Below are positions 57,533 through 62,633 of a stretch of DNA of 64,000 bases, piece after piece. The stretch is from positions 157,340 through 221,339 of the forward strand of contig CANREL010000002.1 in assembly GCA_947629655.1 (NCBI GenBank), given 5' to 3'. The notes beneath the pieces are model-generated. The model saw only the letters and a program-made list of their open reading frames with translations, was not told the DNA's origin and searched no databases. The stretch is from an uncultured Bacilli bacterium (lineage in GTDB: Bacteria > Bacillota_I > Bacilli_A > RF39 > UBA660). The translations under genes were made by a program, and so were the position numbers. Each line of letters opens with the position of its first letter. Positions within the stretch are counted from its first letter, which is position 1.

Positions 57533-57560
57533 TTAAAAAAAAGACTATTTTAATAGTCTT
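57533..57560 (-). terminator. Strong intrinsic terminator closing the FkbH-ACP-VOC-MBOAT-SGNH operon
   Basis: AAGACTATT..AATAGTCTT palindrome followed by an 8-nt T-run on the minus strand. Overlaps the stop codon. Confidence 0.65.
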
Positions 57561-58587
57561 CTTCATATTCTTTTAAAACTTCTTCAAAATCTTTATTACT
57601 TTCCTTTTTGAAACTAGCTTTAAAGCGTTCATATTCTTCATGCCATGATTTATAATCAGCATCTTCTTTATGATTTCTAAATTTATAAGTTTCAGCTAAA
57701 TACTTAGAAAAATATAGTGTGAATTTAGTTGAACCATAAACATTCAAATGCGCGAAGTTATAATAATCAGTCTCTGGATCTATTTTTAAGTCCTCATCTT
57801 TGGCAAAATTCATTACCTCTAATCCACTATCTTCAATAATTGAAATAGCAAAATTAATTTTTTGATTTACTTCTTCACTATAAACTCTTGGTGTTAAGAC
57901 GAATAAGACTTGTAAATTATTATCCTTGATATACTTAATCAAATCACGTAAAATCTTTTCATTTTCTTTTCCCATATCTCTTTCTTCATCTTGCCAGACA
58001 TATTTTTCTTGAGGATTAATTTGGGATGTCCAATCTACGTATAAATATCCTTTATATAGTTCTGGATTTGGTTCAAAGCTCTTAACAGTCAAATCTTTCC
58101 ATCTGTTGTGATATAACAAATGACTGAAATAAAAATTGACGTATTCTTCTTTAGGAACATTTTTCCATTCAAATATCTCTTTTAGAGCATCCATTTTATT
58201 TTTAGAAAAACGGATATTGTCAACAGTTCTTCTTATATTACTATAATCATATTCTTCCTTACCATCAGCTACTTTAGCAATATCAATGATGTATAGTGAT
58301 GGTTTTTGATATCTCTCTGCTTCCTTAATCAAATATTTTGTAAGTATAAAGGGCATCGCATCAGTTGATTGAAAAAGAGTTGCGAATCCATACTTGTGAA
58401 AAGCTAATGTCGAATTAAAACTTACATAGGCATTACTACTTCCAACATAGACGATATCGGCAGTATTTTTCTTTTCTTTGTAAAATAGCGAAATGTTATT
58501 ATCATCTAACCAAAGAACATCAAATACATTTAGGAATAAAAAGATAAATACTAATATAAAAATGATACTTTTAATAAAATTCTTCAT
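57550..58587 (-). CDS. N-terminally anchored extracytoplasmic SGNH/DltD/PatB-like acyl-transfer partner of the MBOAT
   Basis: 345 aa with a single N-terminal TM segment (IIFILVFIFLFLNVF). Has a Ser-containing block I-like IVYVGSSNAY near the anchor and a C-terminal His block YNFAHLNVYG. It lies directly downstream of the MBOAT, the same position as DltD/PatB/AlgJ partners. Confidence 0.5.
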   Translation of the reverse strand: MKNFIKSIIFILVFIFLFLNVFDVLWLDDNNISLFYKEKKNTADIVYVGSSNAYVSFNSTLAFHKYGFATLFQSTDAMPFILTKYLIKEAERYQKPSLYIIDIAKVADGKEEYDYSNIRRTVDNIRFSKNKMDALKEIFEWKNVPKEEYVNFYFSHLLYHNRWKDLTVKSFEPNPELYKGYLYVDWTSQINPQEKYVWQDEERDMGKENEKILRDLIKYIKDNNLQVLFVLTPRVYSEEVNQKINFAISIIEDSGLEVMNFAKDEDLKIDPETDYYNFAHLNVYGSTKFTLYFSKYLAETYKFRNHKEDADYKSWHEEYERFKASFKKESNKDFEEVLKEYEEDY

Positions 58588-58594
58588 ACTTTTA

Positions 58595-58602
58595 CCCCCC
58601 CC
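58595..58602 (-). repeat. G8 homopolymer tract (minus strand) between the MBOAT stop and the SGNH-like start
   Basis: Forward CCCCCCCC at 58595-58602. Minus strand reads TAGGGGGGGGTAAAAGTATG. The first G belongs to the MBOAT TAG stop, and the run also serves as the only Shine-Dalgarno-like element for the next gene. Confidence 0.9.
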
Positions 58603-60789: not shown

Positions 60790-62567
60790 TATTCATACAC
60801 CTCTATTACATTATTTTTATTTTCATAATTAGTTATATCTAAACGATATACTTTATTTCCTTCATCATCACAAGAGATTTCTTCAAATCCTAGTGAATCA
60901 TAAAACTCTTTAACCATTTTATTCTTCAATGTTGGATAGTAATAACCATAGATGACTTTAATCTTTTTCTTCTTAGCTTTTTCAACTAATTTATCCATCA
61001 TTGCATATTCCATATTTCTCTTTAGAACACGACAACTCATTATCCATAAATCAATATGTAACTCATCTTTATTTTTAATATTACCAATTACGACACTGAT
61101 AACACCATTATCACCAAAAATATCTTCCAATTTTCCATATATTTTGATGTAGTCTTTACTCTTATTAACTTCTTCAATATCAGATAGTGAATACCTCTTC
61201 GTCGTCAAATTGAATTGATTACTCTTATTGCTAAGTTGTGATATTCTCTCCAAGTAAATAGCTTTGAAATCTGTTATTTCCGCTTTCATTTTTAAAGATA
61301 ATAAATAATCTTCATAATTATCAAATGTTGCCATCATCTGACTTCTCTTAGCATTATCTTTATAAAGCTCACTCTTCTTCAAATCTTCGCTAGAAAAGTT
61401 AGTAACTTCAAAATAACCATTGCGATCAATTATCTTAATATAGTTTTCAGGAACATCAATTTCTGGTGTTGCGATACCTTCGACATAATTTTGAACGATT
61501 GCTCTTTCAGCTGGATTGTCATCGACAAATACAAAACTATCTGCTCCCAAATTCAACTCTTCTGCAATATCTTTAATATTCATATTTTTAGGATTCCAGT
61601 TAGCTTTAATGATTATGAAATCATCCGGTTTTAGGCAACCAGCTGGATGTTCAAGTCCTGCAATCGCATTTTCATATTCATTTTTAGAGTTGACGTTCAA
61701 AATTATTCCCAAACTCTTGTGTTGTTTTAAATAGTCTTGGAACTCATAAAAGACTTGTCCTTGAGGAACTTCTGGTCCAATTGCTAAATTCTCAACTCCA
61801 TCATCACCAACAATCCCACCCCATAAAGTATTATCTAAATCTAATACAAAAGCTTTTTTATTCTTTCCATAGATAGATTTAATTATATTGGCAAGATTAA
61901 AAGATAGATACGGAATAGCTGGTACTTCCATCGCATATTTATACATGTGCCAATAGAATTGATTAGCCCATTTATCTAATCCATAACAAGCTGATACATA
62001 ATTGATATCATTGATGAAAAAACTTTTACTGTTATTAGCATAATCATAAAATTTTTGATTTAAACGCGTTATAAAATTAATTTTTCCATGGACATCTGAT
62101 GCATCTTTATTTCCTAAAAGACGATAGTAAGGATATTCAAAATTATTTTGAATTATTGTAGCATTGAACTTTTCAAATAATTTATCCCACATCTTTTCGA
62201 ATTTAGAATATTCTTGCTCTAGTAAATCATTAACTGTTTTTTCATCATCATACATCGTTGGATAATTGATAATATTGCGATTAGTCGTATGAATGTAGAT
62301 AATATCAGGATTAAAATTGTCTAACTCTTCATTACCAAACATTGCATCTTCCCAAAATTTATTGTATTCTGACTCATAAAAAATGGGCTTAATACCATAA
62401 TTCAATAAAAATAATTCCAACATATTTTTTATTTCACTAGTAGTAGAACCACCCAAAATAGCTATTTTCTTTTCTAAAAGATTAGCGTTTTCTAATAATT
62501 TCTTTTTAATTTTCTTTTTATTCTTTATCAAGTAATCCACATCGAATGGATATTCTAATTCCTTCAT
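60789..62567 (-). CDS. FkbH-like HAD-IIIC phosphatase/acyl-loading enzyme
   Basis: About 592 aa from ATG 62567, with GGAGGA 7 nt upstream. HAD motif I is FVLDLDNTLWGG, motif FVDDNPAE follows, and the C-terminal GNAT-like part carries IMSCRVLKRNME, as in the FkbH family (TIGR01686-type, from memory). Confidence 0.8.
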   Translation of the reverse strand: MKELEYPFDVDYLIKNKKKIKKKLLENANLLEKKIAILGGSTTSEIKNMLELFLLNYGIKPIFYESEYNKFWEDAMFGNEELDNFNPDIIYIHTTNRNIINYPTMYDDEKTVNDLLEQEYSKFEKMWDKLFEKFNATIIQNNFEYPYYRLLGNKDASDVHGKINFITRLNQKFYDYANNSKSFFINDINYVSACYGLDKWANQFYWHMYKYAMEVPAIPYLSFNLANIIKSIYGKNKKAFVLDLDNTLWGGIVGDDGVENLAIGPEVPQGQVFYEFQDYLKQHKSLGIILNVNSKNEYENAIAGLEHPAGCLKPDDFIIIKANWNPKNMNIKDIAEELNLGADSFVFVDDNPAERAIVQNYVEGIATPEIDVPENYIKIIDRNGYFEVTNFSSEDLKKSELYKDNAKRSQMMATFDNYEDYLLSLKMKAEITDFKAIYLERISQLSNKSNQFNLTTKRYSLSDIEEVNKSKDYIKIYGKLEDIFGDNGVISVVIGNIKNKDELHIDLWIMSCRVLKRNMEYAMMDKLVEKAKKKKIKVIYGYYYPTLKNKMVKEFYDSLGFEEISCDDEGNKVYRLDITNYENKNNVIEVYE

Positions 62568-62587
62568 CACTCATATCCTCCATATCA

Positions 62588-62616
62588 AGTGTACCATTTA
62601 TAACTTTTAATTTCAA
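62588..62616 (-). promoter_or_regulatory. Putative sigma-A promoter of the FkbH operon
   Basis: Minus strand: TTGAAA (62616-62611), a 17-nt spacer, then TACACT (62593-62588). Confidence 0.4.
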
Positions 62617-62633
62617 TGAAAAGATTGTATAAT
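62605..62633 (+). promoter_or_regulatory. Putative acpS promoter (extended -10), back-to-back with the FkbH promoter
   Basis: TGTATAAT at 62626-62633 with a weak -35 (TTTTAA, 62605-62610) that abuts the opposite promoter's -35. This placement argues for the ATG 62649 start of acpS. Confidence 0.4.

Follow-up and report, generated by a model that had tools for sequence, protein, structure and literature searches.

The stretch of DNA analyzed here, referred to as the window, comprises 64,000 nucleotides of contig CANREL010000002.1 from an uncultured Bacilli bacterium. Toward its far end, five genes on the minus strand form a compact operon that encodes an FkbH-type loader, an acyl carrier protein (ACP), a VOC-fold metalloenzyme, an acyltransferase of the MBOAT family and a membrane-anchored partner protein. 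An earlier account of this DNA, the sequence-only reading, proposed that the operon follows a Dlt-like path in which the FkbH-type enzyme takes the place of the loader DltA, and that its target is the cell envelope rather than a polyketide. This core withstood all of the computational tests that were run, but the part given to the VOC protein and a clue drawn from a neighboring cotE gene need revision. We consider it likely, with a probability of roughly 60%, that the operon specifies a carrier-dependent MBOAT-SGNH relay that esterifies an extracytoplasmic envelope polymer with a three-carbon 2-hydroxyacyl group. The genes and signals, in window coordinates, are as follows:

60789-62570, minus strand: FkbH-type loader, 593 aa from GTG 62570; probable ATG start at 62567
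60544-60789, minus strand: acyl carrier protein (81 aa), phosphopantetheine site Ser39 in D-W-D-S-L
60139-60519, minus strand: VOC-fold metalloenzyme (126 aa), H5/E54/H73/E121 metal site, glyoxalase-I-like; an optional cassette
58602-60137, minus strand: MBOAT (511 aa), catalytic His287 (WRNWH), C-terminal FIYRQF
57550-58587, minus strand: partner protein (345 aa), transmembrane anchor at residues 7-25, predicted SGNH/DltD-like domain
57535-57564, minus strand: putative intrinsic terminator, 12-bp AU-rich stem, 4-nt loop, U8 tract
62588-62616, minus strand: candidate sigma-70-type promoter, TTGAAA-17-TACACT with TG upstream, in a region shared with the divergent acpS
62616/62649-62963, plus strand: acpS (holo-ACP synthase), likely start Met12 at 62649; PF01648 55.9 bits, TIGR00516 57.1 bits

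All five minus-strand open reading frames (ORFs) of the sequence-only reading are present at these positions, and the motifs that it quoted all occur in the translations. The genes are tightly packed, as had been described, with intergenic spacings of -1, 24, 1 and 14 nt; the start of the carrier gene overlaps the FkbH stop by 1 nt, and each of the five genes is preceded by its own Shine-Dalgarno sequence. For the loader, the ATG at 62567 is indeed a likelier start than the GTG at 62570, because it is preceded at 8 nt by GGAGGA and the alignments of most homologs begin at residue 2 (49 of the 62 FkbH matches that are N-terminally complete). The claim of a divergent acpS that shares an intergenic region of ~80 bp with the operon holds if acpS starts at Met12 (62649), and AcpS is probably the activator of the carrier protein.

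The expression signals are softer than first described. A sigma-A-like promoter can be read as TTGAAA-17-TACACT with an upstream TG (a 9/12 match), but it does not stand out from background. The sequence is AT-rich, and such matches are no more frequent in it (48 found) than in shuffles (39.3 ± 5.7). Similarly, the terminator that had been called strong does consist of a hairpin with a U8 tract at the operon end, but it is AU-rich. The hairpin overlaps the stop codon of the partner gene and has an RNA folding energy of -12.7 kcal/mol (z -3.6 relative to shuffles). A consensus terminator scan found nothing after the operon, and the hairpin was seen only by direct folding, because it has fewer than three G-C pairs.

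The MBOAT was identified as such by profile search (PF03062, 52.8 bits versus a cut-off of 27), and its core is nearest to DltB. When a profile of its clade was compared with solved sequences, DltB was the sole match (E 1.8e-19), and the closest fold to the AF2 model (pLDDT 86.7) is also DltB, with a TM-score of 0.73-0.76 normalized to DltB, followed by PORCN, LPCAT3 and HHAT. The catalytic His287 is conserved in 63/63 MBOAT homologs and aligns with the WH motif of DltB. The protein scores below the DltB equivalog (TIGR04091; 137.2 bits versus 375), whose model spans residues 7-407 only. The C-terminal ~100 residues contribute two extra hydrophobic helices (441-459 and 477-495) and then F506-I-Y508-R-Q-F511 at the very C-terminus, with Phe506 and Tyr508 conserved in all 63 homologs and the terminal Phe in 60. 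FXYXXF is an acyl-shuttle motif that resides on the microprotein DltX in Dlt systems, and is C-terminally fused on a further pair of transmembrane (TM) helices in bacterial MBOATs such as PatA; its Tyr receives the acyl group from the MBOAT and passes it to the SGNH partner (PMC12148441). The operon MBOAT is basically a hybrid, with a DltB-like core and a PatA-like fused acyl shuttle. Both sequence and fold support the Dlt-like view taken in the sequence-only reading, but that reading overlooked the fused FxYxxF shuttle, which makes the protein half PatA-like.

The FkbH loader consists of an FkbH_N domain, then a HAD-IIIC phosphatase domain (D244-L-D246-N-T248) and finally a C-terminal domain (S512-C513-R514). 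Profile searches bear out its identity, with scores of 258.6 bits for TIGR01686 (cut-off 146.65), 62.5 bits for TIGR01681 (HAD-IIIC; cut-off 35.75) and 38.1 bits for PF21211 (FkbH_N; cut-off 27). Its best solved relative, and the only solved homolog, is BF1531 of Bacteroides fragilis (3SLR; E 9e-50), which aligns over residues 21-394. The HAD motif residues D244, D246 and T248 are invariant in 55/55 FkbH homologs, as is S512-C513-R514, in which Cys513 is the candidate glyceryl-carrying cysteine. The neighboring carrier was confirmed as a PP-binding protein (PF00550, 22.5 bits versus a cut-off of 20.8), and all 62 of 62 sequences keep its Ser39. Among solved structures the putative ACP 2LML comes closest (E 8e-18); among the best 60 of 78 solved matches there is no chain named DltC, and all are named ACPs. 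The carrier matches neither the AcpP nor the DltC equivalog above cut-off. No DltC model is found among its NCBIfam matches, the best of which are generic ACP models below cut-off.

The partner protein has no Pfam or NCBIfam match at E<=0.01, including DltD (PF04914) and the GDSL families (PF13472/PF00657), and a profile of its family found no DltD or SGNH protein among solved sequences. The top match in that search was a C-S lyase, which was dismissed as spurious because only 82 residues are covered. The AlphaFold model, made with 51 family members, is of high confidence (pLDDT 93.9, pTM 0.91), and its top Foldseek matches are DltD structures (3bma, E 4.4e-4; 7dxm; 6pfx), followed by TesA and PatB. 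The SGNH/DltD-like assignment of the sequence-only reading is thus upheld by the modeled fold, but since the profile searches found no relationship, the protein is not a member of the DltD family by sequence. Gly49, Ser51, His160, Asn260 and His280 are invariant in 104/104 partner-family members from the fetched loci (motif G49-x-S51-N), and Ser51 and His280 would be the expected nucleophile and base. A single TM helix (residues 7-25) is preceded by Lys2 and Lys6 and followed by acidic residues, so the positive-inside rule predicts an outside-facing domain. There are at least 57 close proteins with 40-51% identity, none of them annotated, and the family profile retrieved 8,037 cluster representatives at E<=1e-3 (2,295 at E<=1e-30) from 1.84 billion proteins, with representatives taken at 50% clustering. 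The partner founds a large family for which there is no Pfam model.

The VOC protein shares the VOC fold and the Glyoxalase_4 family (PF13669, 66.5 bits, as anticipated) with glyoxalase I and methylmalonyl-CoA epimerase (MCE). Its ligands H5/E54/H73/E121 are invariant in 29/29 homologs. The proposal that it is of the MCE type was right about the presence of these residues, but the nearest characterized relative is a glyoxalase I, that of Clostridium acetobutylicum (2QH0/3HDP), to which it is 40% identical with all four ligands aligned; these two entries are the only solved relatives at E below 1e-3, and no MCE structure was matched at E<=0.01. The protein lies far below both equivalog cut-offs, with 29.4 bits versus 114.95 for MCE (TIGR03081) and 26.2 bits versus 120 for glyoxalase I (TIGR00068), and unlike those enzymes it would act on a protein-bound substrate. 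The H/E/H/E arrangement is the glyoxalase I tetrad, while MCEs usually have Gln at the second position. In the ~30 loci examined for context, members of the VOC clade all lie within FkbH/carrier/MBOAT clusters.

Glyoxalase I forms a 2-hydroxyacyl thioester by way of a metal-bound enediolate, and MCE epimerizes the alpha-carbon of a thioester likewise, the enediolate in both enzymes adjoining a thioester or hemithioacetal carbon, so that action of the VOC protein on C2 of a glyceryl or lactyl thioester is plausible. C2 epimerization may be ranked first among its possible roles, at somewhat below even odds, because it is the only reaction that would change the product without duplicating FkbH or the dehydratase and reductase described below, and because L-glycerate esters occur in nature while the FkbH product is the D-form glyceryl unit. 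Such L-glycerate esters are found in gellan (PMC4432689). Epimerization is one hypothesis among several for this protein, and is the weakest step of the pathway proposed here.

Conservation of the cluster was surveyed in two ways: a scan for the partner family with one genome per species gave 75 loci, and the ORFs of 78 non-redundant loci were searched with the window proteins (loci are referred to below by L numbers). Nearly all of the 75 loci come from rabbit-gut metagenome-assembled genomes (MAGs) labeled uncultured Bacilli or Clostridia, and the remainder are from Candidatus Onthocola, a Hadza human-gut MAG and the cultured Anaerovorax odorimutans. The FkbH-carrier-MBOAT-partner core recurs in 60 complete clusters, each on one strand, which supports the core of the sequence-only reading. 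The gene orders include FAMP, FAVMP, FADKMP, FAMPDK, DKFAMP, MPFADK and DKMPPFA (F, FkbH; A, carrier; V, VOC; D, dehydratase; K, reductase; M, MBOAT; P, partner), and since the order is shuffled while the gene set is kept, selection appears to act on the set as one functional unit. A divergent acpS stands directly upstream of the cluster in 16 surveyed loci, and also in L085.

The clusters differ in three tailoring genes. Among the 60 clusters, 8 have none of them, 22 have VOC only, 26 have a MaoC-hotdog dehydratase together with a short-chain dehydrogenase/reductase (SDR), and 4 have all three. The MaoC and SDR genes (30/60 clusters) always occur together, usually between the carrier and MBOAT genes. 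VOC is not a fixed part of the system, as it is present in 26/60 clusters and absent from the 8 that lack a tailoring gene. The VOC gene and the dehydratase-reductase pair (hereafter DH+KR) are anti-correlated (odds ratio 0.056, Fisher p 4.8e-6, phylogeny ignored), and the rarity of clusters with all three fits redundancy, with VOC acting as a dehydratase or in a glyoxalase-I-type lactoyl-carrier route, at least as well as epimerization. The cassette type is also discordant with the phylogeny of the core. L028 (VOC) and L041 (DH+KR) have 99% identical FkbH and 92% identical MBOAT proteins, and L061 (no cassette) and L073 (VOC) have 98% identical FkbH proteins and identical carriers. This discordance points to exchange of cassettes among closely related genomes, and the core enzymes seem able to accept different ones. 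In FR901464 and lankacidin biosynthesis, DH-KR proteins convert glyceryl-S-ACP to lactyl-S-ACP (PMC4765723), a precedent that supports the glyceryl-carrier as the common intermediate. In those pathways the activities are domains of polyketide synthases (PKSs), whereas in 30/60 sister clusters the MaoC-hotdog and ketoreductase-type SDR are separate proteins; the window operon has VOC instead.

The loader can also vary. Four more distant members of the partner family were sampled, three of them on contigs too short for context, and two on short contigs have upstream MBOATs ending in DFIYMAF and EFIYQGF. In L002 (9986-16088) and L081 (8151-14924), the partner family and MBOATs ending in FIYEQF and FIYRGF are accompanied by 73-75-aa carriers (…GILDSIEVV… and …GILESLDIV…) and by an AMP-binding, DltA-like enzyme that replaces FkbH. 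L002 is an Acutalibacteraceae MAG in which a CitMHS/Na-sulfate-type transporter gene lies between the carrier and ligase genes, which suggests that the acyl group is an imported acid; L081 is the cultured Anaerovorax odorimutans, and has TagF-like and LtaS-like genes nearby. L087 (1-8569) encodes a radical SAM/SPASM protein, FkbH, an aldo-keto reductase, a split transketolase (N and C subunits), MaoC, an 80-aa carrier, an MBOAT ending in FIYQGF and a 522-aa partner, followed by an AT3 protein and glycosyltransferases. Its carrier shares a DWDS(F/L)EHINLIVAVESEF core with that of the window, and the gene set implies more elaborate hydroxyacyl units. The carrier, the FxYxxF-MBOAT and the partner are a conserved chassis on which loaders are interchangeable, and the simplest reading is that a carrier thioester would be the donor for the MBOAT, as in Dlt.

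The surroundings of the clusters are rich in genes for surface polymers. The 136 nearest flanking ORFs include GT2 glycosyltransferases (7), TagF-type glycerophosphotransferases (5), NAD-dependent epimerases (5), AT3 proteins (4), TagO/MraY-type GT4 proteins (4), Bac_transf (3), IspD/TarI (3) and Wzz (3), and no ketosynthase (KS), FabH-like or PKS family is among their top 25 families. Eight flanking ORFs are of at least 900 aa, and the seven that were profile-scanned (all except that of L081) are a non-ribosomal peptide synthetase (NRPS; L016), PolC, YfhO, two GT8-GT2-pyruvyltransferase fusions, a surface protein and one protein with no family match. Embedding in PKS or NRPS loci was rejected on this basis, since the census and the large-ORF scan gave only the NRPS of L016; the clusters are not consistently found in such loci (adjacent NRPS in 1/78, PKS-sized ORF in none), which would have spoken against the sequence-only reading, and there is no megasynthase within the window. 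The L016 NRPS (13735-21036; C-A-T-C-A-T-reductase, >2,434 aa, running off the locus) begins 2.7 kb downstream of a FADKMP cluster. We take it to resemble the dipeptide-aldehyde-type NRPSs of gut Firmicutes. Its adjacency is probably coincidental, and it is possible that lactyl-ACP serves as its starter.

Two further contexts concern the acceptor. In L083 (5949-11349), and with the same layout in L084, FkbH, ACP, VOC, MBOAT and a 476-aa partner are inserted in the dcw operon of one widely sampled lineage, in the order mraZ, rsmH, ftsL, [cluster], PBP, murE, mraY; the VOC protein of this cluster is present in at least 41 blocks of the collection. This insertion could be a hint that the acceptor is peptidoglycan or a lipid-linked precursor. 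In the window itself, the neighbors are housekeeping genes (uppS, cdsA, rseP, smc, ruvAB, rpsP), so the acceptor of this operon is not readable from local context. The cotE gene downstream of the operon (profile score 171.5 bits) had been offered as a clue to a spore-layer target. It adjoins the cluster in only one of the 78 other loci (L033), the contexts being otherwise diverse, and the clue was discarded as lineage synteny.

The partner gene is often multiplied. Up to five tandem copies accompany a single MBOAT (L017, 10001-17936), and tandem copies also occur in L023 (8954-12886), L040, L047, L052 and L069. At these loci the partners are 40-53% identical to the window protein, compared with 63-87% for FkbH and 56-72% for MBOAT, which suggests that partners are fast-evolving, acceptor-specific outer components.

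Some MAGs contain two separate loci of the system (L072/L077, from CANPXJ; L058/L062; L022/L036; L031/L057; L038/L079). In CANPXJ, both are complete acpS-FkbH-ACP-VOC-MBOAT-partner copies. Such pairs could be true duplications, strain mixtures or binning artefacts. In L005 (1-9032), MaoC, SDR, MBOAT and partner genes at the locus edge are followed by phosphonate genes (a PEP mutase-cytidylyltransferase fusion, a TPP decarboxylase and an Fe-ADH), then by a second partner paralog and, further on, by a second MBOAT pair. In this case, the surface polymer may carry phosphonate as well as acyl groups.

When compared with known systems, the operon shares with Dlt (DltA/DltC/DltB/DltX/DltD) a small carrier encoded beside the MBOAT, an MBOAT core nearest to DltB, a membrane-anchored partner with a DltD-like fold and invariant Ser and His, and an FxYxxF acyl-Tyr shuttle. 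It differs in that the loader is an FkbH-type phosphatase/transferase that would act on a glycolytic intermediate, rather than DltA with an adenylated amino acid, and in that the predicted acyl group is an uncharged hydroxy acid rather than a cationic amino acid. The MBOAT is of 511 aa with the motif fused on two extra helices, while DltB has ~415 aa and no fused shuttle. No AMP-binding (DltA-type) gene is found in the operon or the window region, such loaders being confined to the distant relatives L002 and L081, and the gaps of at most 24 nt leave no room for a DltX microprotein. Since DltA and DltX are lacking, the carrier is not a DltC equivalog, the MBOAT falls below the DltB cut-off and the partner has no sequence similarity to DltD, the operon is not a member of the Dlt system. 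The C-terminal FxYxxF on two extra TM helices (FIYANF in NgPatA, FIYRQF here) and the separate external SGNH partner are instead features of the PatA/PatB, AlgI/AlgJ/AlgX and WssH-type systems. Unlike PatA/PatB-type systems, which use acetyl-CoA and no carrier (PMC12148441), a carrier and a loader are co-encoded in 60/60 complete clusters. The pairing of an FkbH-family enzyme with a standalone ACP is that of FkbH and OzmB in the methoxymalonyl-ACP and tetronate pathways, but the operon has none of FkbK, FkbI and FkbG and lacks both a FabH-like enzyme and a PKS; an MBOAT is predicted to be the consumer, and the HAD domain follows an FkbH_N domain (PF21211). The system thus resembles Dlt in its donor half and PatA/PatB in its shuttle half, and its loader is of the polyketide type. 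A literature search returned nothing relevant that links FkbH or HAD-IIIC proteins and ACPs with MBOAT, Dlt or capsule, and because of this and of the statement on carriers in PMC12148441, we rate it as a new carrier-dependent variant of MBOAT-SGNH envelope acylation.

From the observed gene content, conservation, folds, motifs and contexts, we infer the following chemical steps, topology and acceptor. AcpS would phosphopantetheinylate Ser39 of the carrier. The FkbH enzyme would accept 1,3-bisphosphoglycerate, remove the phosphate by means of D244/D246 and hold the glyceryl group on Cys513 before its transfer to give glyceryl-S-carrier, as in established FkbH chemistry. Where present, the VOC protein would use the 2-hydroxyacyl thioester as its substrate and go through a metal-bound enediolate, most likely with epimerization at C2; in sister clusters the MaoC dehydratase and SDR would instead lead to lactyl-S-carrier by the known DH-KR route. 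The loaded carrier would then dock on the cytoplasmic face of the MBOAT, and His287 would move the acyl group to Tyr508 of FIYRQF at the outer face, as for DltX and PatA. Finally, Ser51 of the partner would take the acyl group and esterify a hydroxyl of a wall glycopolymer with it; the acceptor could be a teichoic-acid-like polymer, some polysaccharide or peptidoglycan. The installed substituents are probably glyceryl (or lactyl) esters, both of which are known on exopolysaccharides (PMC4432689).

Several observations count against this relay. In PMC12148441, the non-Dlt MBOAT/SGNH pathways use acyl-CoA, without carrier proteins, so an acyl-CoA donor is conceivable here too. FkbH-type clusters are found in uncultured MAGs only, and no glycopolymer genes adjoin the operon in the window. 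For the partner, the TM-scores to DltD are modest (0.43-0.47) and the family profile search revealed no sequence-level similarity to DltD; block V does not have the canonical DxxH spacing, with an Asn three residues before H280, and the nearest conserved acid is D274, six residues before H280 (Asp in 89/104, Glu in 11). In addition, the anti-correlation between VOC and DH+KR is not predicted by a model in which VOC is purely an orthogonal epimerase.

One rival explanation divides the operon into two functions, in which the MBOAT and partner would form a PatA/PatB-like O-acetyltransferase that uses acetyl-CoA, and the hydroxyacyl-ACP would serve a cytoplasmic enzyme, encoded elsewhere, that N- or O-acylates a sugar precursor. 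A fused FxYxxF is typical of acyl-CoA-using MBOATs, whose pathways lack carriers (PMC12148441), FkbH-like proteins and "WDSL" ACPs do occur outside MBOAT contexts (e.g., the structural-genomics targets BF1531 (3SLR) and 2LML), and L005 and L048 have an MBOAT and partner with no FkbH within reach. However, in L005 the MaoC and SDR genes are directly upstream of the MBOAT at the locus edge, and the loader may be cut off. No other acyltransferase is conserved in the clusters, which leaves the MBOAT as the sole candidate consumer of acyl-ACP; FkbH, ACP, MBOAT and partner stay linked through many rearrangements of order, and the relatives with DltA-like loaders keep the carrier beside the same MBOAT/partner pair, as in Dlt. 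We consider such a division of functions unlikely. Use of glyceryl-ACP for a polyketide, tetronate or non-ribosomal peptide, with the MBOAT acylating that small molecule, is very improbable. The characterized FkbH systems are all in PKS/NRPS pathways and the L016 NRPS begins 2.7 kb from its cluster, but this is the only NRPS near any of the 78 loci, the window contains none, and KS, FabH-like and PKS genes are not among the top flanking families; moreover, a membrane-anchored, DltD-like partner in up to 5 tandem copies fits polymer acceptors.

Other alternatives retain the relay and alter its chemistry. The architecture could be right and the acyl group not glycerate, if FkbH loads another acyl phosphate or phospho-acid, or if VOC makes a 2-hydroxyacyl (e.g., lactoyl) thioester on the carrier thiol out of methylglyoxal or another 2-oxoaldehyde, much as glutathione is used by glyoxalase I. 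VOC and DH+KR would then be two routes to lactoyl-carrier, which would explain their mutual exclusivity, and the 40% identity of VOC to glyoxalase I, with the full H/E/H/E site, is in line with this. The L087 loader with its transketolase, aldo-keto reductase and radical SAM protein likewise indicates that the family handles more than plain glycerate. Yet FkbH is kept in every VOC-type cluster (22 VOC-only, 4 mixed), where it would be needless if VOC loads the carrier, its TIGR01686 score is well above cut-off, its phosphatase Asp pair and Cys are invariant, and the action of DH+KR after FkbH has a direct precedent from glyceryl-ACP; a non-glycerate group is quite unlikely. VOC might also be something other than an epimerase, either dehydrating glyceryl-S-carrier via the enediolate to pyruvoyl-S-carrier (the DH half of the reaction), or having no role on the carrier-bound acyl group. 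Redundancy with MaoC would explain why clusters with both cassettes are rare (4/60; odds ratio 0.056), and the gain or loss of VOC between near-identical cores (L061 versus L073) indicates that the core works without it. We know of no VOC-fold dehydratase of this kind, however, and the known VOC reactions of thioesters (epimerization by MCE, the 1,2-proton shift of glyoxalase I) involve an enediolate but no elimination. As substituents of a wall polymer, alpha-keto esters would be labile, and the four mixed clusters (FAVDKMP) keep VOC next to the carrier alongside DH+KR. Such a role, or the absence of one, seems improbable, and we retain the glyceryl- or lactyl-transferring relay as the preferred reading.

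MBOAT-SGNH pairs are a general bacterial route for the acylation of polymers outside the membrane. If the relay operates as proposed, this cluster family would break the rule that only Dlt uses a carrier and the others acyl-CoA (PMC12148441). Besides acetate and D-alanine, the groups attached outside the membrane would then include hydroxy acids derived from glycolysis, and FkbH enzymes would serve primary envelope biology instead of polyketides. New ester substituents are predicted on the teichoic acids, wall polysaccharides or peptidoglycan of abundant uncultured gut Firmicutes. The gene set is small and defined (four to six genes plus AcpS) and could be reconstituted in vitro, and Anaerovorax odorimutans (L081) is a possible experimental entry point. 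More tentatively, the clusters may constitute a modular "hydroxyacyl code" for Gram-positive envelopes, written by the first carrier-dependent MBOAT-SGNH pathway besides Dlt, in which cassettes choose the exported acid and multiplied partners write it onto different polymers. The cassettes (none, VOC, dehydratase plus reductase, or both, with variants that add transketolase, aldo-keto reductase and radical SAM) would then set D- or L-glyceryl or lactyl groups, and their exchange between near-identical cores would amount to strain-level surface variation, affecting phage receptors and host recognition, in gut Firmicutes.

Several other features of the window were recorded. Rfam (at the gathering threshold) and tRNA scans of the 64 kb found no RNA family and no tRNA. 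T-box leaders precede aminoacyl-tRNA synthetase genes in many Firmicutes, but none was detected in the window despite the presence of alaS (8999-11692) and thrS (24784-26538). Pfam gave no match at E<=1e-5 for several sizeable ORFs at 606-2348, 45048-46661 and 18707-20018 (minus strand), whose lengths are 580, 537, 175 and 259 aa, and a 181-aa ORF directly downstream of acpS (63006-63551, plus strand) has no Pfam or NCBIfam match. At 53568-56202 (minus strand), a LemA gene is flanked by genes for two TPM-domain proteins, one of which (349 aa; 55153-56202, minus strand) has an unusual Gly/His-rich tail, …GGGHGGLHTSHGHHSRGGGGHHGGGGRSGGGGSSRHF. Genes for an IstB/DnaC-like ATPase, a prepilin peptidase (A24) and a T2SS-F-type platform protein lie together among housekeeping genes at 29181-32364 (minus strand), and make up part of a competence or type IV pilus apparatus.

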